A stretch of DNA of 64,000 nt from positions 1,280,001 to 1,344,000 of the forward strand of contig OZ244239.1 of the NCBI GenBank assembly GCA_965217115.1, given 5' to 3'. This DNA is from Bdellovibrionales bacterium (GTDB taxonomy: Bacteria; Bdellovibrionota; Bdellovibrionia; Bdellovibrionales; CAYMLA01). A program made the translations under genes and the position numbers. Positions 5,925 through 17,018 of this stretch are shown piece after piece (position 1 is the stretch's first letter; each line of letters opens with the position of its first letter). Below the pieces are notes generated by a model. That model did not search any database. It was given only the letters and a program-made list of their open reading frames with translations, and was not told the DNA's origin.

Positions 5925-6875
5925 TTGGAAATATTGATGGATAATGAAAAACAGGAAAATGAGTTGAGTCATAAGGAAGGCCAAAAGAAGCCTTCTGTTT
6001 ATGAATATATAAGTTTCCGCCGTTTTTTAAAAGAGAGTTATGAGCATCTAGCTTCTAAGAACTCTTCTTTTAGTGAATCGGCTTTTATGAGAAAAGTGGG
6101 ATATAGTACCAGTAGTCGTGGTTATTTTAGCCTTATTCTTAAGGGAAAGAGAAACTTAAGTCACTCTTCTGTTTTGAAGTTTTCTAAGACATTGAAGCTC
6201 TCTAAAAGAGAGACAGATTACTTTGAGAGTCTTGTTTTCTTTAATCAAGCTCAGAATGAAGAGGATAAGAGTTATTATATGGATAAGATGTCTCAGTTCA
6301 TAAAGGGTAAAGAGACTGAAGGGTATGAGCTTTTAAAGAGCCAGCACAACTACTTGTCAAAATGGTATCTCGTAGCAATTAGAGAGATTGTTGTGCTCGA
6401 CGATTTTGTGAATGATGAAGAGTGGATTGCTAAGAGGCTGCGCAATAAAGTGAGTAAGAGAGAAGTTCGAGAGGCGATCAATGACCTTCTTCGTTTGAAG
6501 CTTTTGAAGTTCGACGAGGCGAGAAACCTTTGTCAATTAGACCCGGTGGTGAATTTTTTGGACAATGAGTTGAATCATACAGTCGTCAGTGGAATACATA
6601 AACAGTACTTAAATAGAACCGAAGAGTTGTTAAGTGAAGACAGTTACAATCACCGTAGCGCCAGTTCTGTGACAATTTCTTGTTATGGCGAAGATTTTTT
6701 AAAGATAAGAGAAGAAATTATCAAATTTAGAGAACATATTATTAATAAATACGGAACTCGAGATCAAAGTATGGATACCGTTTTACACATGGGAATACAG
6801 TTGATTCATTTAACTGAGCCTGACTGTGTTAATGGGAGTGGCGTTGATGAGAGTCATAAGGAGAAAATAGGATGA
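5925..6875 (+). CDS. TIGR02147-family protein (N-terminal HTH-like domain plus DUF4423-like domain), putative regulator
   Basis: Y.SFR.FLK..Y, LILKGKRNLS, E.DYFESLVFFNQA, YLSKWYLVAIRE, WIAKRL and AI..L.RL.LL match the pattern of this family. Confidence 0.85.
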   Translation: MEILMDNEKQENELSHKEGQKKPSVYEYISFRRFLKESYEHLASKNSSFSESAFMRKVGYSTSSRGYFSLILKGKRNLSHSSVLKFSKTLKLSKRETDYFESLVFFNQAQNEEDKSYYMDKMSQFIKGKETEGYELLKSQHNYLSKWYLVAIREIVVLDDFVNDEEWIAKRLRNKVSKREVREAINDLLRLKLLKFDEARNLCQLDPVVNFLDNELNHTVVSGIHKQYLNRTEELLSEDSYNHRSASSVTISCYGEDFLKIREEIIKFREHIINKYGTRDQSMDTVLHMGIQLIHLTEPDCVNGSGVDESHKEKIG

Positions 6876-7768
6876 AGTGGGTTTGCGAAAAAAAGAATTG
6901 TTTAATGTTCGTGTTTAGGAATTTGTCCAAAGTACTCTTGGTCTTTCTTTTGTGTTCCAGTTCAGCGGTGGGGCTTGAAACACCTTTTCTTTCTTCTGGA
7001 ACAAACATTGGTGGAGGTAATGAGTCCATTGATTTTGTAGCAACTTGGTGTCAGGAGGCCGTATCGACATTAAAGGAACATAAAGAGAGTGCTAAAATAC
7101 AGGTTCATCAGGGGAACTATCACACGGCTTCTTTGACTTTGGTCAGTGGTTTAGTTCGGGCTTTGGAGCAGAGCCAATCAGAGAATAATTACCTATTTAC
7201 TTATAAGGCCCTCTTAAGGGGTTTGAGTTTGGCAGAATTCCTTGATGTGGGAAGGGTTGATAAAAGTAGTTTTGAAAAAGAAGCGACTTATAATCTACTC
7301 AGAAGTTATTACGATTTTGTTATTGAGACTGTCGCTAGGGATTTAGATTTTGATGTGTACATTCCTTATCTTAGATGTGTTGATTGTGAATTGCATGATG
7401 CAGATCATTTTGAGCGTCGTTTTGTGAATTATGTTGTGAAGCAGTTGAGTTATATCCAAAGGACTTTAGTCAATGTGATCCATAGGGAAGGATATATAGA
7501 AATAACCCCTATAGGACCTGAGAGTTACTATTTAAAATCGATGGAGTTCTTTGCTCAGTACACGGCGGAGGATTTAAAGAACAGTCTTTGGAAGCAGCGT
7601 TTTAGTTGTGTGATTAGTGAGCTTAAGTCTTTAAATGGTAAACTTCAGCACTACAATCAGGGCAATACATCACTGTATCCAGACTCTCGTATTGCAGTCA
7701 ATATGGTGGGGAATCAGGTTTATAGAATTATTTCTCGTCTAAGGACAGAGGCAAATTGTTATTATTAA
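6872..7768 (+). CDS. Secreted helical-domain protein, paralog of 3074-4243
   Basis: Signal-like hydrophobic stretch then SSGTNIGGGNE; overlaps the regulator stop codon (ATGA); shares motifs with 3074-4243. Confidence 0.75.
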   Translation: MKWVCEKKNCLMFVFRNLSKVLLVFLLCSSSAVGLETPFLSSGTNIGGGNESIDFVATWCQEAVSTLKEHKESAKIQVHQGNYHTASLTLVSGLVRALEQSQSENNYLFTYKALLRGLSLAEFLDVGRVDKSSFEKEATYNLLRSYYDFVIETVARDLDFDVYIPYLRCVDCELHDADHFERRFVNYVVKQLSYIQRTLVNVIHREGYIEITPIGPESYYLKSMEFFAQYTAEDLKNSLWKQRFSCVISELKSLNGKLQHYNQGNTSLYPDSRIAVNMVGNQVYRIISRLRTEANCYY

Positions 7769-7802
7769 GTTTAGAATTTATATATCTTAGGAGGATATCG
7801 CA

Positions 7803-8669
7803 ATGAAACATTTAATTTGGACAATGGTTTTTTATGTAGGTTTGATAATGCAGGGGCAGTTGGTCATGGCGTTTTCTTTACAAGAAGGCACTTATAAGGG
7901 GTCACATTACGACTCTTTAAAAAAAGGGAAGGCGGCTGTTTACTTAATGTTAAAGCCAGTCTCAGGAAGGGAAGGGAGCTTTCTTGCTGTTCTAATGAAG
8001 AGTAAGAAAAGAAAGAAGCAAGTGTCTTTTTATGTGATGGACTTGGCGTCAAAATTTTCTTACTCTCTAACCCCCCTTGATGTGACCACTGATGGACAAA
8101 TAGGTATTATCAATGATGACCCCAGTCTTGTTTTGTCGATGAGTACAGGAGAGAAGAATAAGTACTCCATTAAGATAACATCGAGCAATAGTGGCAATAC
8201 TAAGGGTTTTTCAGGGTATATGGTGTTTGAGGAAAGATCAGATAATTACCAGTGGATTGCTAATGGAGCTGGTAATTACAACTATGCAGGTCGAAAAAAC
8301 GCATTACAAATTTCTAGCTGGGATATTCTGGAAGGAGAGGCAGATGCCATTTTCACAACAGCTTCATTGAACGGGTCCTTTAAGATCAGTGAAAGTTTTC
8401 CTCAAATGTATTTAATCAATGCCAACAAGGTTTTAGCTACTGGCAGTAAAGTGGATTCTATCCCACGTAAAATAGGTTTCTTTATTAAAGAGAAAGGAGA
8501 ATGGTCGGGTAAAAAAGAGTGTTTTGTTCTGGTCAACCCAGAGAATGATAGAGATGTTATGACTTTTACGACGGGAAGTAGTGGGTCGAGTTCTTGGTTT
8601 AGTGGAGATTCAGGAACCTTTGATGATGATGATAATGATGGCGGGATGAGAGGTTCCGGACGAAAATGA
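7803..8669 (+). CDS. Secreted hypothetical protein (beta-rich, Gly/Ser/Asp-rich tail)
   Basis: RBS aggagg, signal peptide ending VMA-F, 288 codons. Confidence 0.7.
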   Translation: MKHLIWTMVFYVGLIMQGQLVMAFSLQEGTYKGSHYDSLKKGKAAVYLMLKPVSGREGSFLAVLMKSKKRKKQVSFYVMDLASKFSYSLTPLDVTTDGQIGIINDDPSLVLSMSTGEKNKYSIKITSSNSGNTKGFSGYMVFEERSDNYQWIANGAGNYNYAGRKNALQISSWDILEGEADAIFTTASLNGSFKISESFPQMYLINANKVLATGSKVDSIPRKIGFFIKEKGEWSGKKECFVLVNPENDRDVMTFTTGSSGSSSWFSGDSGTFDDDDNDGGMRGSGRK

Positions 8670-8742: not shown

Positions 8743-10398
8743 ATGAAAATCTTAAGCAAAGTGAAGAGAGTTTTAAAAAAGGGAAGTGTGTTGACTTTGT
8801 CCATGTCTTTGTTTTTAGGGTTGAGTTTCTCCCAAGCGGAGATTGCCGGCAATTTAGGCGGCAATTTAGGTCTTAATCTAGGTATTAATATTGAAGCCGT
8901 GCTCAATGAAGGGACTCAAGTTGAGTTATCTCAAGAGCAGATATCAGAGATACTCCCCTGGGCTAAGAACTCGAAGATTTTCCTAGAGAATCTTCTTGAG
9001 GATGTGGCAGGTTTGCGTAAGGCAGAGCAATTACAGCAGTTGAAGGGAGGTATTCGAGATGTGGTTTTAAAAAGTGCCCCTAAGAACACTGAACTTTTAA
9101 TGCGTTATGTGTTGAACCGTTCAATGAAGCTTGTTGATGTGATCTCCACTGAATCAGTTTCTGGTGATCGGGGAATTATGAGCAATCAACTTCGCCTACT
9201 TAAAAGAAGTGTTGAGATGGCTTTGGGTTATTATAAGAGTGATCTGTCCTACTTAAATGGTGAGGATGACAGTGAAGACCGTGTTTCTTTTGGGGTCTTT
9301 GGATTGGAGTATTCTGTGTTTTTAGCAGATTTAGGAAAATCGATCTTAGATGCATCGGCTCAATATAAAGTTATAAGAACGGGTTTAGGTTTTCTGCAAT
9401 GGGATCTTTATAGGGATCAGAACAATAAGTTATTTGCTCCATCGATTATGTCGTTAAATAACGTCCTAAAGGCGAATCCTGAAGACGTAGAAGCCAGTGA
9501 TCAGAATTACCTAGAGAGAATTCGTCAGTTAAAGAGGGTTTACAAAAAACAAAAAAACAGTATCGTGCAAAAGTTAAGAATAGCAGGCGTGCAAGTGAGA
9601 AAAGAGAGAAGGAAAGAGCGGGGAGTTTCTTCAAGTGTGCTCCAAGCTCTTTTTGTAAAGGTAGAGCCGGGTAGGTTTCAGATGGGAAGTTCCACTCGTG
9701 AAAAAGGTCGTTATGATGATGAGACCCAGCATGAAGTGACTTTAACGAAAGGTTTTGAGATGCAAGCGACAGAGGTCACTCAGGAGCAATGGTTTGAAGT
9801 CATGGGCGATAGCCCCTCCGACTTTAATAAAAAAACATACTGTGAAGATTCTTTTAAGGATGTGGATGGGACTCCACTATGCCCTCAACATCCTGTGGAG
9901 AACATTTCTTGGAAAGATGTTCAGGATTTTATACGTGAGTTAAATATATTAAGTTCTACTCATACTTATAGATTACCGACTGAGGCCGAATGGGAGTATG
10001 CGGCCCGTGCAGGGACGAAAACCCCTTTTAATTTAGGGGGAGATATCTCTCCAGAGAGAGTGAACTATAATGGTGATGAGCCTTATAGAGGTGTTAAAGG
10101 TCTTAATAGAAAACAGACAGTCGCGGTGGCTAGTCTTGATAATGCGAATAGATGGGGTCTTTATGATATGCACGGTAACGTGTGGGAATGGGTGAAGGAC
10201 CGATACACTAAGTACCCCGATAGGCCTATGATAAATCCAAATCTCTTGAATCGCCCACGCTCACAAGTTGTTTTGCGTGGTGGTGACTGGGCATCCAAAG
10301 CTAGGCACATGCGGTCGGCGATGCGTCTTAACAGCGATTATTCTTGGAGCGACGAAGACGGCAGTGCGGGCTTCCGTCTTGTGAGGACTGCCAAATAG
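8743..10398 (+). CDS. Secreted protein: conserved helical N-domain plus FGE-sulfatase-like (CLec fold) C-domain; putative DGR target
   Basis: Start after RBS aaagagg; signal peptide ending SQA-E; F.MGS, EVTQ.QW, PVENISW, YRLPTEAEWEYAARAG, GLYDMHGNVWEW, VLRGG.W, GFRLVR. Confidence 0.9.
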   Translation: MKILSKVKRVLKKGSVLTLSMSLFLGLSFSQAEIAGNLGGNLGLNLGINIEAVLNEGTQVELSQEQISEILPWAKNSKIFLENLLEDVAGLRKAEQLQQLKGGIRDVVLKSAPKNTELLMRYVLNRSMKLVDVISTESVSGDRGIMSNQLRLLKRSVEMALGYYKSDLSYLNGEDDSEDRVSFGVFGLEYSVFLADLGKSILDASAQYKVIRTGLGFLQWDLYRDQNNKLFAPSIMSLNNVLKANPEDVEASDQNYLERIRQLKRVYKKQKNSIVQKLRIAGVQVRKERRKERGVSSSVLQALFVKVEPGRFQMGSSTREKGRYDDETQHEVTLTKGFEMQATEVTQEQWFEVMGDSPSDFNKKTYCEDSFKDVDGTPLCPQHPVENISWKDVQDFIRELNILSSTHTYRLPTEAEWEYAARAGTKTPFNLGGDISPERVNYNGDEPYRGVKGLNRKQTVAVASLDNANRWGLYDMHGNVWEWVKDRYTKYPDRPMINPNLLNRPRSQVVLRGGDWASKARHMRSAMRLNSDYSWSDEDGSAGFRLVRTAK

Positions 10399-10457
10399 TC
10401 ATGAATTAAGAGGCTCTATTTAAATTAAACAGAGAAGATATTAAAGAGGAATATATT

Positions 10458-11639
10458 ATGAAAATCTTAAGCAAAGTGAAGAGAGTTTTAGAAAAGGCAA
10501 GTGTATTGACTTTGTCCATGTCTTTGTTTTTGGGATTGAGTTTCTCCCAAGCGGAGATTGGTGGCAATTTAGGTAGTAATTTAGGTCTTAATCTAGGTAT
10601 TAAGATTGAAGCCGTGCTCAATGAAGGAACTCAAGTTGAGTTATCTCAAGAGCAGATATCAGAGATGCTTCCCTGGGCTAAGAACTCGAAGATTTTCCTA
10701 GAGGATCTTCTTGAGGATGTGGCAGGTTTGCGTAAGGCAGAGCAATTACAGCAGTTGAAGGCAGTTATTCGAGATGTGGTTTTACAAAGTGCTCCTAAGA
10801 AGACTGAACTTTTAATGCGTTATGTGTTGAACCGCTCAATGATGCTTGTTGATGTGATCTCCAATGAATCGGTTTCTGGTGATCGAGGAATTATGAACAA
10901 TCAACTTCGGCTGCTTAAAAGAAGTGTTGAGATGGCTTTGGGTTATTATAAGAGTGACCTGTCCTACTTAAATGGTGAGGATGACAGTGCAGATCGTGTT
11001 TCTTTTGCGGTCTTTGGCTTGGAGTATTCTGTGTTTTTAGCAGATTTAGGAAACTCGATCTTAGATGCATCGGCTCAATATAAAGTTATAAGAATGAGAT
11101 TAGGTTTTTTACAGAATAGTCTTTATAGGGATCAGAACAATAAGGTATTTGCTCCATCAATTATATCGTTAAATAACGCCTTAAAGGCGAATCCTGAAGA
11201 AGTAGAAGCCAGTGACCAGAATTACCTAGAGAGAATTCGTCAGTTAAAGAGGATTTATGAGAAACAGAAAGCTCATATTGTACAAGAGTTAAAAGAGATG
11301 AAGTATGATATCAGTAATTTTGAGTCACAGGAAGTCGAAAGAGAAAACTATAGGAATAGGAGAGAAATTGACAGGAAGAAGATGAAAAAAAAGATGAGAA
11401 AAAAATACTACAGTTGTAGAAACGTAGAGAGAGGGAGTCGTTTCGATTTTGCCCGTTATGATAAACGCGATAACGCTCAAAAATGTATAAAAAAATATGC
11501 AAAATTTATCTCTACTGGAGATTGTCGCTACAGCCTTGGATTTACCCGGCCATTTCTCAATTATTCAATCTACTCATTTATCCCCGCAAAAGTTTTTGTG
11601 AAGGATGTTATGGACACTTGTCGTAGATACGTAAAATGA
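10458..11639 (+). CDS. Secreted protein: same N-domain plus unrelated basic, Cys-containing C-terminal domain
   Basis: N-terminal ~280 aa near-identical to neighbours; unique ~113-aa Lys/Arg-rich tail with 4 Cys. Confidence 0.88.
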   Translation: MKILSKVKRVLEKASVLTLSMSLFLGLSFSQAEIGGNLGSNLGLNLGIKIEAVLNEGTQVELSQEQISEMLPWAKNSKIFLEDLLEDVAGLRKAEQLQQLKAVIRDVVLQSAPKKTELLMRYVLNRSMMLVDVISNESVSGDRGIMNNQLRLLKRSVEMALGYYKSDLSYLNGEDDSADRVSFAVFGLEYSVFLADLGNSILDASAQYKVIRMRLGFLQNSLYRDQNNKVFAPSIISLNNALKANPEEVEASDQNYLERIRQLKRIYEKQKAHIVQELKEMKYDISNFESQEVERENYRNRREIDRKKMKKKMRKKYYSCRNVERGSRFDFARYDKRDNAQKCIKKYAKFISTGDCRYSLGFTRPFLNYSIYSFIPAKVFVKDVMDTCRRYVK

Positions 11640-11745: not shown

Positions 11746-13353
11746 ATGAAAATCTTAAGCAAAGTGAAGAGAGTTTTAAAAAAGGCAAGTGTATTGATTT
11801 TGTCCATGTCTTTGTTTTTGGGATTGAGTTTCTCCCAAGCGGAGGAGATTGCCGGCAAATTAGGTAGTAATTTAGGTCTTAATCTAGGTATTAAGATTGA
11901 AGCCGTGCTCAATGAAGGAACTCAAGTTGAATTATCTCAAGAGCAGATATCAGAGATGCTTCCCTGGGCTAAGAACTCGAAGATTTTCCTAGAGGATCTT
12001 CTTGAGAATGTGGCAGGTTTACGTAAGGCAGAGCAATTACAGCAGTTGAAGGCAGTTATTCGAGATGTGGTTTTACAAAGCGCTCCTAAGAAGACTGAAC
12101 TTTTAATGCGTTATGTGTTGAACCGCTCAATGATGCTTGTTGATGTGATCTCCAATGAATCGGTTTCTGGTGATCGAGGAATTATGAACAATCAACTTCG
12201 GCTGCTTAAAAGAAGTGTTGAGATGGCTTTGGGTTATTATAAGAGTGACCTGTCCTACTTAAATGGTGAGGATGACAGTGCAGATCGTGTTTCTTTTGCG
12301 GTCTTTGGCTTGGAGTATTCTGTGTTTTTAGCAGATTTAGGAAACTCGATCTTAGATGCATCGGCTCAATATAAAGTTATAAGAATGAGATTAGGTTTTT
12401 TACAGAATAGTCTTTATAGGGATCAGAACAATAAGGTATTTGCTACATCGATTATATCGTTAAATAACGCCCTAAAGGCGAATCCTGAAGACGTAGAAGC
12501 CAGTGACCAGAATTACCTAGAGAGAATTCGTCAGTTAAAGAGGGTTTACAAAAAACAGAAAAATCATATCATGCAAGGGTTAAAAAGAGCAGGCGCGCAA
12601 GTGAGAAAAGAGAGATGGAAAGAGCGGGGTGTTTCTTCAAATGTGCTCCAAGCTCTTTTTGTAAAGGTAGACCCGGGTAGGTTTCAAATGGGAAGTTCCA
12701 TTCGTGAAAAAGGTCATTTTGAGGATGAGACCCAGCATGAAGAGATTTTAAAGAAAGGTTTTGAGATGCAAGCGACAGAGGTCACTCAGGAGCAATGGTT
12801 TCAAGTCATGGGTGATAGCCCCTCCTACTTTAATAAAAAAACATACTGTGAAGATTCTTTTAAGGACGTCGATAGAACTCCACGATGCCCTCAACATCCT
12901 GTGGAGAACATTTCTTGGAATCATGTTCAGGATTTTATAAAGGAGTTAAATAAATTAAGTTCTACTCATATTTATAGATTACCGACTGAGGCTGAATGGG
13001 AGTATGCGGCCCGTGCAGGGACGAAAACCCCTTTTAATTTAGGGGGAGATATCTCTCCAGAGAGAGTGAACTATAATGGTGACAAGCCTTATAAAGGTGT
13101 TAAAGGTCTTAATAGAAAACAGACAGTCGCGGTGGCGAGTCTTGATAATGCCAATAGCTGGGGCCTTTATGATATGCACGGAAACGTGTGGGAATGGGTG
13201 CAGGACTGGGGCAGCTATGAGTGGTACCGTGTTTTGCGTGGCGGTGGCTGGCCGAACCCCGCTTGGCGCGTGCGGTCGGCGGCGCGTACTAATCGGGAGA
13301 AAGGTTCGATTCACCGAGCTGTGGGCTTCCGTCTTGTGAGGACTGCCAAATAG
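11746..13353 (+). CDS. Secreted protein: same N-domain plus FGE-sulfatase-like (CLec fold) C-domain; putative DGR target
   Basis: Same leader, RBS and motifs as 8743-10398; differs strongly only in the last ~50 codons. Confidence 0.9.
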   Translation: MKILSKVKRVLKKASVLILSMSLFLGLSFSQAEEIAGKLGSNLGLNLGIKIEAVLNEGTQVELSQEQISEMLPWAKNSKIFLEDLLENVAGLRKAEQLQQLKAVIRDVVLQSAPKKTELLMRYVLNRSMMLVDVISNESVSGDRGIMNNQLRLLKRSVEMALGYYKSDLSYLNGEDDSADRVSFAVFGLEYSVFLADLGNSILDASAQYKVIRMRLGFLQNSLYRDQNNKVFATSIISLNNALKANPEDVEASDQNYLERIRQLKRVYKKQKNHIMQGLKRAGAQVRKERWKERGVSSNVLQALFVKVDPGRFQMGSSIREKGHFEDETQHEEILKKGFEMQATEVTQEQWFQVMGDSPSYFNKKTYCEDSFKDVDRTPRCPQHPVENISWNHVQDFIKELNKLSSTHIYRLPTEAEWEYAARAGTKTPFNLGGDISPERVNYNGDKPYKGVKGLNRKQTVAVASLDNANSWGLYDMHGNVWEWVQDWGSYEWYRVLRGGGWPNPAWRVRSAARTNREKGSIHRAVGFRLVRTAK

Positions 13354-13469
13354 TCATGAATTAAGAGGCTCTATTTAAATAATGCCTTAAAGATGAGACC
13401 TGAAAAAGCACAAATTAAAGATTAGGGACAAAGAGTGAGAATGTTTTTTAAGAAGAGACTGATCTTTGA

Positions 13470-16400
13470 TTATAAAAACAATTCAGGGAGTTTTTGGTAA
13501 ACAGATGACCAAGACATATTGTCCATTTGTACGGCGATTTTATGACTACCTACGAGAGTGACAGAGCCTTTTTTCTGTTTGGAAGTTTTTTTGACGAGAG
13601 CTAAAATAGTCTCAGATTTAATGGAGGTGTCTCGTCTAAAAGTAATGGAGAGATTTTTCTTTCCACTAGAGATGTCGGTGATATAAAGTTTTTTACAAAG
13701 ACTTCGTATAAGCATCAGGCCTATGAGGTTAATAACGGGTTCAGGTATTGAACCAAATCGATCCTTAAATTCGTCCTCTATGGTGTCAGCATCCTCTTCG
13801 CCTCGAATCTGTGTGAGTTTTTTGTAGTAGGCTAGACGAGTGCGAATATCTGGAATGTACTTATTAGGAATAAGGGCTGCAATGCGGAGATTTATTTCTG
13901 GTTCAAAACTGTTTTCTTCAAGTTCCTCTCCTTTTAATTTTTGGATTTCCTGTTTGAGAAGATCCATGTAGAGTTCATACCCAATGGAGGAGACCTGTCC
14001 TGATTGATCTTGTCCGAGAATATTTCCAGAGCCCCTTAGTTCAAGGTCGTATTGAGCGATGAGAAGACCGCTGCCAAAACGGGTGTTTTCTTGAATAATA
14101 CGTAATCTCTCTTGGGCCAGAGGCTCAATGGTCTTGTCTTTTGGTATAAGCAGATAACAATAAGCCTTTTGATGACTGCGACCAACTCTTCCACGCAATT
14201 GATAAAGTTGGCTTAAACCAAAGGTATGGGCGTTATCAATAAAAAGAGTGTTGGCTTGTGGAATATCAATGCCCGATTCAATAATTGTTGTGCAAACGAG
14301 AAGATCTACTTCGTGTTTAAAGAAACTCAAAATAGTTTTTTCCAAACCTTTTTCATCCATTTGCCCGTGACCGACAGCGATTTTTATTTCAGGTAAAAGC
14401 TCTCGTAGTTCGAGAGCAACCTGATTTATAGACTGTACGCGGTTGTGAAGAAAGAAAACCTGGCCATCACGAGCGACCTCAGCAAGAACTGCCTTGCGAA
14501 GAGTTTCTTTTTCAAATCGAGTGATAAAAGTTCTTATTGGCTGACGATTTAAGGGCGCCGTATTGATAAGGCTTAGGCTGCGCAGTCCAGAAAGGCTTAA
14601 GTTTAAGGTGCGTGGAATAGGGGTGGCCGACATAGCAAGAGTGTCGATGACGTTTTTGAGTTTACGAATTTTTTCTTTATGGGCGACACCAAACTTCTGT
14701 TCTTCGTCAACAACAAGTAAACCAAGATTTGCAAAGTGAATTTTCGAGCTAAAAACTTTGTGAGTTGTGATTAAAATATGAACATCACCACTGTTAATAG
14801 CATTAATTGTTTTATGAATATGTTTGTTAGACATAAAACGATTGAGGAGCTGTATGTTAAAAGGCCAATTTTTAAATCGTTTTTTAAAGGTTTCATAATG
14901 TTGAAAGGTAAGGACTGTCGTCGGAGCTAAAATGACAACCTGTTTGCCATCTTTAGCTACGCGAAATGCGGCTCGCATGGCGACCTCTGTTTTTCCAAAG
15001 CCGACGTCTCCACACAAAAGACGATCCATGGGTTGCTCTTTAGAGAGATCCTCTTGAATTTCACCGATGGCTTTTTGTTGGTCGACAGTTTCTAGATAGG
15101 GGAATTCTTTTTCGAAGAGCTCGTAATCCTGATTTAGCGCAGAAAAAGGGGGCCTTGTTATCTGGGCTCGTTTGGCATAAATACTTAGTAATTCTGAGGC
15201 GAGGTCCTTTAAGTGTTTCTGTGTTTTACTTTTTGTCTCCTGCCATTTTTGACCGCCCAGTTGATCTAATATAACAGACTTGTCGGGTCCTGAGTATTTT
15301 TGTAAAAGACCAACACGGTAGGTGGGAACATAAAGTTTATCCTGTTTTTTGTAGGTGAGTTCTATAAATTCATTTTCGACCCCTTCAATAGAGATCATTT
15401 TAAGACCATGGTAAAGACCAATACCGTGTTCAATATGGACAACGCTGTCCCCTATTTTGAGATCACCAAAACTAAGTAGGCTGGCGTTTTCTTGAAAACT
15501 TTGGTGGGCTTCTTTTTGTCTGTTGACGAGAGCCTTGCGTCCGAGGAGGTCTTTTTCTTGGATAAGCACAACTTTATCATCCATGTTGTGTAGAGTCTCA
15601 GAGATTTGCCCCTCAAGAATATGTATAAGAGGGACCTCCGATTGATTTTGCTCCTCAAACCATTGATTCCAGTGACGGTCTTTTTTTGGAACAAGTTTGT
15701 ATAAGAAGCCCATTTGTTTAAAAAGAGCTTGGACTCTTTCAAACTGGTTATGGTGACTGATACAGGCAAAAATAAAGCAACCCTGTTCCTGCCAGTGAAC
15801 TATTTTTTGGGAGAGTTTGTCCTGCCAAGGAGAGTTGTCATTTTCCCTGTGAATATTTCTTAATTCAGAGGGGTAACGGGAGCGAAGGGAGACGGAGTCT
15901 GGGTTCCCCTCGGTTTGGCTATCCTGAATACTCATGACCTGAACTGTTGTGACCAAAACAGTGTTGTGGTTTTTTATAAGAAGCTCTTCACTGTAGGGAC
16001 TGTAAAAAAAATGACTTGGATACTGCAAGGTTTCGATTGGAGCCTGAGCTTGCTCTATTTGAAGATCAGAGAAGAGAGTGTCGGCCTGGCGTGTGATTGA
16101 AAGGGGATCAAAAAGCCATAAACAGCGCTCGGGGTGGATAAAATCGAGGGGAGTTCCTGGTTTATTATAGGCAACGGGTAAGTAAAATTCAAAGCCAGGG
16201 AAAGTGCGCTCTTGGCTTAAATTTCGAACTTGGTGCTTAATCCAATCAGCACTGGCTTGGGGGTGTCTCCATTTATGAAATCGCTGGATGGTTTCCTCTA
16301 AGGAATCTCCGTCGTAGAGGACTTCTCGAGAAGCTATAATATCTATTGAATCGATTTTGTTTTGCGATCGTTGAGTATCAAGGTTAAAGAAGCGGATGGA

Positions 16401-17018
16401 ATCAATCTCATCACCAAAGAATTCAATTCGAACAGGAAGAGAATAAGAGGGAGTGTAAATATCTAGAATACCACCTCTAATTGAAAACTGCCCAATATCC
16501 TCAACGCTTGGAGAGTGAATGTAACCGAGTTTTTTAAGCTCTTGGGCAAAGCCGGGGATTTCATTGCCAACGGACCATTTGCTTTGGGTGCTCTTAAAAA
16601 GAGGCTGGGGAATTGTTTTTTGGAGAAAAGCATTGATGGGGGCGATGAGAATGTTTTTTGCTAAATTTTGTTCAGCTAAATAAAGCCAATGAAGGCGTTC
16701 GGCTGCTGTGCCAGGAGAGGAGCTGAGTCCAGAATAGGGAGACACATCCGTCGCTTTAAGGATGTTGCAGGAGATATCTGGGTCAAAAAAGAAAAGATCT
16801 TCTTTTAGGCGAAAGGCTTCTTTTTCTGATGAAACAAGAACGACGTGGGAAAGGCTTGATTGGAAGGATAAATCACTTAAGGAGGCGGCGAGTGTTGGAA
16901 TCGAGCTGTGTCCATGAATTTCAAGGGAATGTTTTTTATGGGAAGAATCAGAGTTGGGAGAGAGCAGTTTCTTGCTCAAAACCCCAGAAGATCGCCAAGA
17001 TAAAGATGAGTAAAGCAT
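13470..17018 (-). CDS. mfd: Transcription-repair coupling factor
   Basis: GQFSIRGGILD, VVHIEHGIGLY (RID), DRLLCGDVGFGKTEVA, VVDEEQKFG, SATPIPRT, QLRGRVGR, TRG motif. Confidence 0.98.
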   Translation of the reverse strand: MLYSSLSWRSSGVLSKKLLSPNSDSSHKKHSLEIHGHSSIPTLAASLSDLSFQSSLSHVVLVSSEKEAFRLKEDLFFFDPDISCNILKATDVSPYSGLSSSPGTAAERLHWLYLAEQNLAKNILIAPINAFLQKTIPQPLFKSTQSKWSVGNEIPGFAQELKKLGYIHSPSVEDIGQFSIRGGILDIYTPSYSLPVRIEFFGDEIDSIRFFNLDTQRSQNKIDSIDIIASREVLYDGDSLEETIQRFHKWRHPQASADWIKHQVRNLSQERTFPGFEFYLPVAYNKPGTPLDFIHPERCLWLFDPLSITRQADTLFSDLQIEQAQAPIETLQYPSHFFYSPYSEELLIKNHNTVLVTTVQVMSIQDSQTEGNPDSVSLRSRYPSELRNIHRENDNSPWQDKLSQKIVHWQEQGCFIFACISHHNQFERVQALFKQMGFLYKLVPKKDRHWNQWFEEQNQSEVPLIHILEGQISETLHNMDDKVVLIQEKDLLGRKALVNRQKEAHQSFQENASLLSFGDLKIGDSVVHIEHGIGLYHGLKMISIEGVENEFIELTYKKQDKLYVPTYRVGLLQKYSGPDKSVILDQLGGQKWQETKSKTQKHLKDLASELLSIYAKRAQITRPPFSALNQDYELFEKEFPYLETVDQQKAIGEIQEDLSKEQPMDRLLCGDVGFGKTEVAMRAAFRVAKDGKQVVILAPTTVLTFQHYETFKKRFKNWPFNIQLLNRFMSNKHIHKTINAINSGDVHILITTHKVFSSKIHFANLGLLVVDEEQKFGVAHKEKIRKLKNVIDTLAMSATPIPRTLNLSLSGLRSLSLINTAPLNRQPIRTFITRFEKETLRKAVLAEVARDGQVFFLHNRVQSINQVALELRELLPEIKIAVGHGQMDEKGLEKTILSFFKHEVDLLVCTTIIESGIDIPQANTLFIDNAHTFGLSQLYQLRGRVGRSHQKAYCYLLIPKDKTIEPLAQERLRIIQENTRFGSGLLIAQYDLELRGSGNILGQDQSGQVSSIGYELYMDLLKQEIQKLKGEELEENSFEPEINLRIAALIPNKYIPDIRTRLAYYKKLTQIRGEEDADTIEDEFKDRFGSIPEPVINLIGLMLIRSLCKKLYITDISSGKKNLSITFRRDTSIKSETILALVKKTSKQKKGSVTLVGSHKIAVQMDNMSWSSVYQKLPELFL

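Follow-up and report, generated by a model that had tools for sequence, protein, structure and literature searches.

In the diversity-generating retroelement (DGR) of Bordetella phage BPP-1, a template repeat (TR), adenine mutagenesis and an IMH (initiation of mutagenic homing) element located at the 3' end of the variable region (VR) serve to diversify Mtd, a protein with a C-type-lectin fold (PMC5758913). In that same account, the survey of Wu et al., VRs on C-type-lectin folds of the FGE-sulfatase type are given as the largest target class, with 71 of 372 DGRs, and the seven related remote targets of the Treponema DGR are given as the maximum. The subject of this report is a pair of tandem genes of the FGE-sulfatase type in a 64,000-nt stretch of a Bdellovibrionales bacterium (assembly GCA_965217115.1, contig OZ244239.1, positions 1,280,001 to 1,344,000 of the forward strand), hereafter called the window. 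Their 3' ends, 10276-10388 and 13237-13343 of the window, are proposed, with a probability of about 0.72, to be orphaned DGR VRs that are now frozen, the reverse transcriptase (RT), Avd and TR having been lost from the genome.

The target of the Treponema denticola DGR, TvpA (2Y3C), carries a C-terminal VR on an FGE-sulfatase-type C-type-lectin fold, as do the window genes, but it is served by a working RT and TR, unlike those genes, and the protein families are distantly related. The accessory genes of the Treponema DGR differ as well. BPP-1 follows the same logic in a phage-borne element with a single target, the Mtd-type fold and a GC-rich hairpin after the IMH, whereas the window genes are FGE-type and no such hairpin is evident downstream of either. 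Orphaned VRs as such are already in print: the target paralogue all3226 of Nostoc sp. PCC 7120 is described as retaining remnant TR-VR homology with no RT nearby, and its authors suggest that components of diversification are removed once a variant has been selected (PMC7517822). Set against that description, the window genome is without any DGR genome-wide, not just at the locus, and 10 intact genes are left. The literature on DGRs of Bdellovibrio or Bdellovibrionota was found to hold incidental mentions and no treatment, the supplements of large surveys lying outside the search, and a search by wording for orphan or relic DGRs found nothing relevant.

Tandem genes with divergent ends

The window holds three tandem cassettes on the + strand, of which genes 1 and 3 are about 93% identical overall. 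Their features are as follows.

8743..10398, + strand: gene 1; the open reading frame (ORF) is open from 8704, and ATG 8743 is the likely start
9652-10386, + strand: C-terminal FGE-sulfatase/C-type-lectin domain of gene 1 (PF03781)
10198..10275, + strand: divergent loop of copy 1, lying after the WEWV.D motif and before VLRGG, and thus upstream of the stretch in DGR-templated register
10276..10368, + strand: VR-like cassette, copy 1; 93 nt, that is, the 87-nt register plus two codons
10369..10388, + strand: IMH-like 20-mer GGCTTCCGTCTTGTGAGGAC, copy 1; VR type, with G at position 18; stop codon at 10396-10398
10399..10425, + strand: leader sequence at the tandem-repeat junction; it opens every cassette and is no DGR element
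10458..11639, + strand: middle cassette (cassette 2); copy of the N-terminal region only, without FGE domain and without VR
11746..13353, + strand: gene 3 (cassette 3), with the architecture of gene 1; the ORF is open from 11677, and ATG 11746 is the likely start
13237..13323, + strand: VR-like cassette, copy 2; exactly 87 nt
13324..13343, + strand: IMH-like 20-mer, copy 2, identical to copy 1; stop codon at 13351-13353
13354..13380, + strand: leader fragment with which the tandem array ends

The proteins of genes 1 and 3 are about 550 aa long and consist of a signal peptide, some 300 residues without a Pfam match and a C-terminal FGE-sulfatase domain. The full PF03781 domain is present in both ORFs (E 1e-47 and 1.3e-40), and the match in gene 1 reaches to within 3 residues of the C-terminus, so that the VR sits in the 3' end of a C-type-lectin/FGE gene. 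By sequence, the nearest solved structures to this domain are PvdO (5hha) and TvpA (2y3c), the latter being the second-best PDB match (E 5e-15). By analogy to TvpA, the variable residues may form a ligand-binding face, and a binding rather than an enzymatic role would be expected of these FGE-type domains, the matches being at the domain level. In the middle cassette, the N-terminal region including the signal peptide is 94-98% identical to the neighbouring cassettes, and an unrelated, Lys/Arg-rich tail of 90 residues without FGE domain forms the end.

When compared in 60-nt bins, the window pair is 82-100% identical across about 1.47 kb, falls to 52, 40 and 58% across 10171-10350, where the alignment is gapped, and then recovers. 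This agrees with the sequence-only reading of this DNA, made before the present analysis, which described FGE domains that are near-identical and then diverge sharply, and the peptide strings are as quoted there. An exact 58-bp tail follows (10368-10425 = 13323-13380), again as first described and now seen by direct comparison; a repeat finder gives 61 nt at 98%, with a single mismatch just 5' of 10368. In connection with it, that reading named the invariant 3' IMH that DGRs need. The tail is an IMH in part only: its first 31 nt are coding, and 20 of them are IMH-like. The remaining 27 nt repeat the leader found at the start of each array cassette, and thus mark a repeat junction rather than a DGR element.

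The window pair has two derived states in common: CGT in the 20-mer and a TAG stop codon. The other eight intact genes of the family, described below, have CGC, and six of these end in TAA. Together with the leader junction, the shared states show that the identity of the tails stems from tandem duplication. The window genes are tandem duplicates, with a shared tail made of an IMH-like gene end and the leader of the next repeat unit.

Templated relatives and a genome without the retroelement

The link to DGRs comes from other genomes with the same gene end. The degenerate 20-mer GGYTTCCGYCTTGTGAGGAC was found at 67 loci in a public genome collection, where its hosts include many metagenome-assembled genomes (MAGs) titled Bdellovibrionales, Bacteriovoracaceae, Pseudobdellovibrionaceae, Halobacteriovoraceae or Oligoflexia, as well as Kiritimatiellia, Acidobacteriota and further groups. 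At 11 of the 67 loci, a DGR-type RT lies 1-2 kb downstream (6-kb flank examined), and in five of these Avd precedes the RT. In eight RT-bearing loci, the RT is followed by another copy of the cassette, which is rich in AAC and AAT codons and ends in GAGTAC or GAGCAC instead of GAGGAC; these properties identify it as a TR with its template-type IMH (IMH*). In six of seven cognate VR/TR pairs, 12-19 of the 24-29 template adenines are mismatched, as are 0-1 of the 58-63 remaining positions, while the seventh pair (locus L053) is out of register via indels. The distance from CGNGG to GGYTTC is 87 nt in all eight TRs and in the seven VRs of relatives that could be placed in register. The window 20-mer fits the VR IMH of these relatives (the two Y positions are C,T here and C,C or T,C there), and has G, as is specific to their VRs, at the position that is T or C in their TRs.

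Two of the systems come from the same order as the window genome: G232 (contig CBDCLX010000002.1, locus L053) and G281 (CBDHDF, locus L074). G232 has one Avd-RT-TR cassette and 12 VR-type tails over a 3-Mb contig, and 10 of the 12 VRs show 0-1 non-adenine mismatches to the single TR, which is above the seven non-adjacent targets quoted in PMC5758913. In G281 there are six VR tails, four of them with 0 non-adenine mismatches to the TR. Both resemble the window family in their FGE-type targets, the 87-nt register, the first-half scaffold, the 20-nt IMH and the many dispersed targets per genome. They differ in that they keep Avd, RT and TR (0-1 non-adenine mismatches), none of which the window genome has, and in a Pro/Arg scaffold in the second half of their VRs, which the window genome's cassettes are without. 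As a side observation, the TR of G232 has TAG at the Trp scaffold codon; the VR adjacent to its cassette is out of register via indels, and long-read assembly errors are possible.

The FGE domain of the window protein shares 38-48% identity with those DGR-adjacent and remote targets that match it best (in L074, L090, L061 and others), and against this level the exact identity of the 20-mer stands out. Judged on sequence comparison, the cassette is with high confidence a DGR variable region by descent, as it has the register, the scaffold codons and the VR-type IMH in common with templated VRs of the same order. Among 384 genomes of this order, 11 carry the 20-mer, the window genome included, and a reversed-pattern control gave 0. 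The only genome of the same family, G001 (locus L025; an assembly of 670 contigs), has a DGR RT with IGNLTSQ and YMDD, which overlaps an Avd-like ORF of 134 aa on a 2.2-kb contig. G001 gave no match to the window VR DNA, the FGE protein or the 20-mer, and for this reason its DGR is uninformative on the window targets.

In relatives of the order, such a system acts in the following way. An Avd-RT-TR cassette reverse-transcribes the TR, with misincorporation opposite template adenines, and the cDNA is copied into all genes that have the 20-nt IMH at their end. Template AAC and AAT codons become NNC and NNT, and the adenine-free scaffold codons are unchanged. The window genome would have lost RT, Avd and TR while keeping its acceptor genes, whose frozen VRs would now change by ordinary drift, indels and recombination.

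The acceptor genes are numerous. The window genome is a single contig of 2,170,531 bases (39.6% G+C, 99.43% complete), in which GGGCTTCCGYCTTGTGAGGACTGCCAAATAA or a near copy forms the tail of 11 gene ends, in five places. The tail-bearing FGE genes comprise 10 intact copies and one pseudogene, and every FGE-sulfatase match of the genome (12 stretches) falls in this family. Six of the 11 cassettes are exactly 87 nt long, window copy 2 among them. All 11 tails are on the + strand; this was considered as a signal and set aside, the five clusters being too few for significance. In the pseudogene, at genome 99009-100724, the FGE body breaks after QTVAVGSLDNAN and resumes in another frame; a duplicated N-terminal fragment comes next, and the end is a VR-like cassette that has a 60-nt insertion and has kept its tail intact.

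Searches of this genome for the machinery found no DGR RT, no TR and no Avd. The sole RT, which is the only PF00078 match (genome 1868.6-1869.2 kb), has 315 aa and RT_VI as its best PADLOC match (1e-71). Its gene overlaps that of a 104-aa helix-turn-helix protein (HTH_VI, 6.9e-28), and the two form a type VI retron-like pair on the - strand at 1868.4-1869.6 kb (L009:1228-2461). As a DGR RT this enzyme was ruled out by the RT_VI match, the HTH_VI partner and the sequence LPTGSPVSP, which is without the SQ motif of the DGR clade (I/LGxxxSQ). In tblastn searches of the genome, the DGR RTs of five relatives gave nothing below E=0.38 and the Avds of four relatives nothing below E=0.25, and the Avd profile PF05635 had 0 matches at E<=1. 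When the VR was compared to the genome by blastn, the paralogues' own ends alone were returned; a scan with the scaffold pattern (<=9/28 mismatches) found 10 of their own cassettes alone, and a scan for template-type tails found none. The template repeat and DGR RT anticipated by the sequence-only reading are thus missing by blastn, pattern scan, PF00078 and tblastn alike. That reading had called the genes DGR targets, "current or ancestral": the 20-mer and the templated VRs of relatives support the ancestral part, and with TR, Avd and DGR RT lacking the current one is not supported. Since the retroelement is absent from a complete genome, the VRs are regarded as frozen.

Two other candidates for a template were examined and rejected. 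One is a fragment whose end is at genome 100691; it lies 1980 nt past a VR tail and starts at about the point where TRs do. Its tail is VR-type, however, and AAC codons are not abundant in it; the fragment belongs to the pseudogenised paralogue, as the scrambled 3' end of that gene, and was rejected as a TR. A metagenome scan for a closer template with the family's own scaffold pattern returned two contigs, with one identical, distant FGE gene that has a different tail and no RT.

It could be argued that the VRs are still diversified in trans, by a DGR on an unassembled plasmid or phage or in part of the population. The exact VR-type 20-mer is retained in 10 of the 11 copies, and its seven codons are synonymously somewhat more conserved than the gene body (0.80 vs 0.63, a value reached by 3.1% of random body samples), both of which would suit such a scheme. 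Moreover, remote targets, at over 100 kb from the RT, are described for non-phage DGRs (PMC5758913) and are present in G232. Against this stand the single complete contig without RT, Avd or TR, and a search of 2.9 million viral contigs with 0 matches to the VR-type 20-mer and 0 to the TR-type 20-mer. In addition, scaffold codons vary among the copies, a difference that a shared template would erase, and one template cannot yield cassettes of unequal length. Ongoing diversification in trans is, on this evidence, very improbable.

Reads were available from four runs of one sample, as Logan contigs only (share of words 0.50-0.67). Across 9700-10460, the VR of copy 1 is covered in three runs with no other letters; as such contigs drop rare variants, low-level diversification is neither demonstrated nor ruled out by these data. 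One joint passes from 10200 to 10368 over 116 letters; this would fit copy 2, in which the same flanks are 116 nt apart. Two further contigs of run X1 may be mentioned. One, of 439 nt (9889-10327), joins copy-2 letters at 9915-9987 to the VR of copy 1; it is a recombinant or else a chimera that arose in assembly over 88 nt of identity. The other, of 169 nt and depth 2.8 (10364-10397), joins the shared tail to a VR-like sequence that is absent from the 11 paralogues.

Codon patterns within the cassettes

The cassettes of the family are built on a common scaffold: CGT GGC GGT AGC TGG, three codons, GCT, three codons, CGG TCG GCG, one codon and CGT. A variable stretch follows, and then GGC TTC CGC CTT GTG AGG ACT GCC AAA and the stop codon. 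Copy 1 of the window reads CGT GGT GGT. TGG n9 GCT n9 CGG TCG GCG nnn CGT. As the sequence-only reading had pointed out, the 16 conserved residues other than Asn from VLRGG to GFRLV of the window pair all use adenine-free codons; under the codon usage of 726 long ORFs of the genome, the chance of this is about 1e-3. Among the 10 intact paralogues, codons for V, L, R, G, S, A, T and P in the scaffold and GFRLV are adenine-free in 114 of 128 cases, against 77.2 expected, whereas the FGE bodies of the same genes are at expectation (541 of 952, 545.5 expected). For Arg alone, 37 of 42 scaffold codons are adenine-free, compared with 41 of 110 body codons. As the paralogues are related, these counts are not independent trials.

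In the first part of the cassette, the positions at which the copies differ also resemble the pattern of a DGR. The sequence-only reading had noted that many variable codons keep their third base, and this was borne out when the 17 leading codons of the window pair were compared: variable codons differ at 10 of 14 first or second positions and at 2 of 7 third positions. Third positions of the scaffold codons differ at 1 of 10, which gives 10/14 vs 3/17 overall (Fisher p=0.004). Three recent paralogue pairs show 24 differences at the 42 first and second positions of variable codons and 10 at 51 third positions, for which scaffold and variable codons were pooled (p=2e-4). The six 87-nt cassettes were further compared with columns that have A in most relatives' TRs, standing in for the absent cognate TR. 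Within columns 1-51, the 11 adenine columns have a variability of 0.48 and the other 40 one of 0.12 (Spearman correlation with the relatives' TR adenines 0.53, p=5e-5). Of 28 invariant columns, 24 fall in the first half and just 2 are adenine columns.

In the seven variable codons, mean pairwise differences at positions 1, 2 and 3 are 0.71, 0.66 and 0.42, compared with 0.23, 0.22 and 0.38 in the FGE bodies; the first two positions are therefore above the synonymous background, taken as the body third position. A greater age of the VRs than of the bodies does not simply explain this, as within clusters scaffold codons are alike in 36 of 42 comparisons, near the body value of 0.926.

Several observations weigh against the reading of these cassettes as DGR VRs that were orphaned and frozen. 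When each is compared to the best of the eight TRs of relatives, the genome's own cassettes mismatch at 19-24 of 56-61 non-adenine positions (34-41%), and over all eight TRs the range is 34-52%. Five of the 11 cassettes deviate from the 87-nt register length. Codons 18-29, the last 36 nt, are without the Pro/Arg scaffold of the relatives, and their variability is unlinked to TR adenines (0.42 vs 0.39, p=0.33). Scaffold synonymous identity between clusters is 0.686 vs 0.646 in the body, and 30% of random body samples reach 0.686; being no higher than the body, it gives no sign of recent template-driven homogenisation or of overwriting by a single template. Third-position differences are 0.42 and 0.48 here, as opposed to 0.03 and 0.00 in the active G232 set (0.42 and 0.03 being those of variable codons). 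Finally, among the 10 other genomes of the order with the 20-mer, four have a strong DGR-RT match (42-100% identity), two have a weak RT and four have none. Tail-bearing genes without a DGR are accordingly not rare, though most of these genomes are draft MAGs.

The window pair adds a further difficulty of the same kind. Its divergence begins about 70 nt upstream of the VR proper and so extends beyond the templated register, and it includes an indel, the loop of copy 1 upstream of the VR being 15 codons longer than that of copy 2. DGR mutagenesis does not account for this loop, and recombination or older divergence is also needed. The divergence of the pair is composite: a VR-type substitution pattern and an indel-bearing upstream loop.

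Much of this would be expected if the paralogues had evolved in the ordinary way, that is, if a DGR-type C-terminus was inherited or transferred and no present copy was ever rewritten by a DGR in this lineage. The loops would then have diverged by positive selection on a binding surface, and gene conversion in the arrays would have kept bodies and tails alike. The similar synonymous identity of scaffold and body, the cassette indels, a second half without scaffold, a divergent zone that exceeds the templated register and 27 non-coding tail nt that mark a tandem-repeat junction all agree with this explanation. It is less able to deal with the first half of the cassette. Both the recent pairs and the six 87-nt copies concentrate their differences at the first and second positions of variable codons, above the third positions of cassette and body, and the scaffold likeness within clusters shows that age alone is not the cause. 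Very strong selection would be required on precisely those codons that are AAC or AAT in the relatives' templates. Ordinary evolution without any rewriting in this lineage is thus considered unlikely.

Under the preferred reading of orphaned and frozen VRs, two points of history can be graded separately. The balance of the codon evidence tilts towards the window paralogues themselves having been rewritten by a DGR after they duplicated. Any such activity on the paralogues would have ended long ago or used templates unlike those sampled, to judge from a second half that is eroded, from the indels and from a scaffold that is not homogenised.

Surroundings of the genes and fate of the target family

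Some VR stop codons are followed, at 20-50 nt, by a motif like TTTTACNCTTNT..CCCTTG, at times with a short GC hairpin. A relaxed regular expression finds it at 19 of the 67 tail loci (for example L047, L049, L072 and L086). In the window genome, it follows about five paralogues (genome 98731, 1722500, 96900, 100730 and 2160390) and does not follow the window genes. The motif might be a counterpart of the post-IMH hairpin of other DGRs, or a terminator.

Upstream of the array, the window encodes a DUF4423 protein (PF14394, 9.5e-23) and two ORFs (298 and 288 aa) that have no Pfam match and whose N-termini are hydrophobic and resemble signal peptides (5925-8669). Downstream, on the - strand, lies an ORF of 1182 aa that appears Mfd-like (13470-17018).

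A further idea concerns the retained 20-mers. The 10 intact genes could be a standing repertoire of acceptors, in which the 20-nt IMH is kept by selection. This is an improbable proposition. If it were true, a DGR regained by transfer, of the sort that serves 10 or more remote targets in relatives of the order, could re-diversify the whole surface-lectin repertoire of this bacterium with its small genome at once, and loss and regain of the DGR would act as a reversible switch between frozen and hypervariable binding proteins.

DGR-diversified lectins are indicated by these data in an order whose MAGs carry the Bdellovibrionales label. If the VRs are orphaned as proposed, a closed genome has kept a whole family of DGR-type targets after the loss of its retroelement, with 10 intact targets and no machinery, in contrast to genomes of the same order that drive 10 or more dispersed targets from one template. 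The two states would offer a before-and-after comparison of the fate of hypervariable binding proteins once mutagenesis stops.

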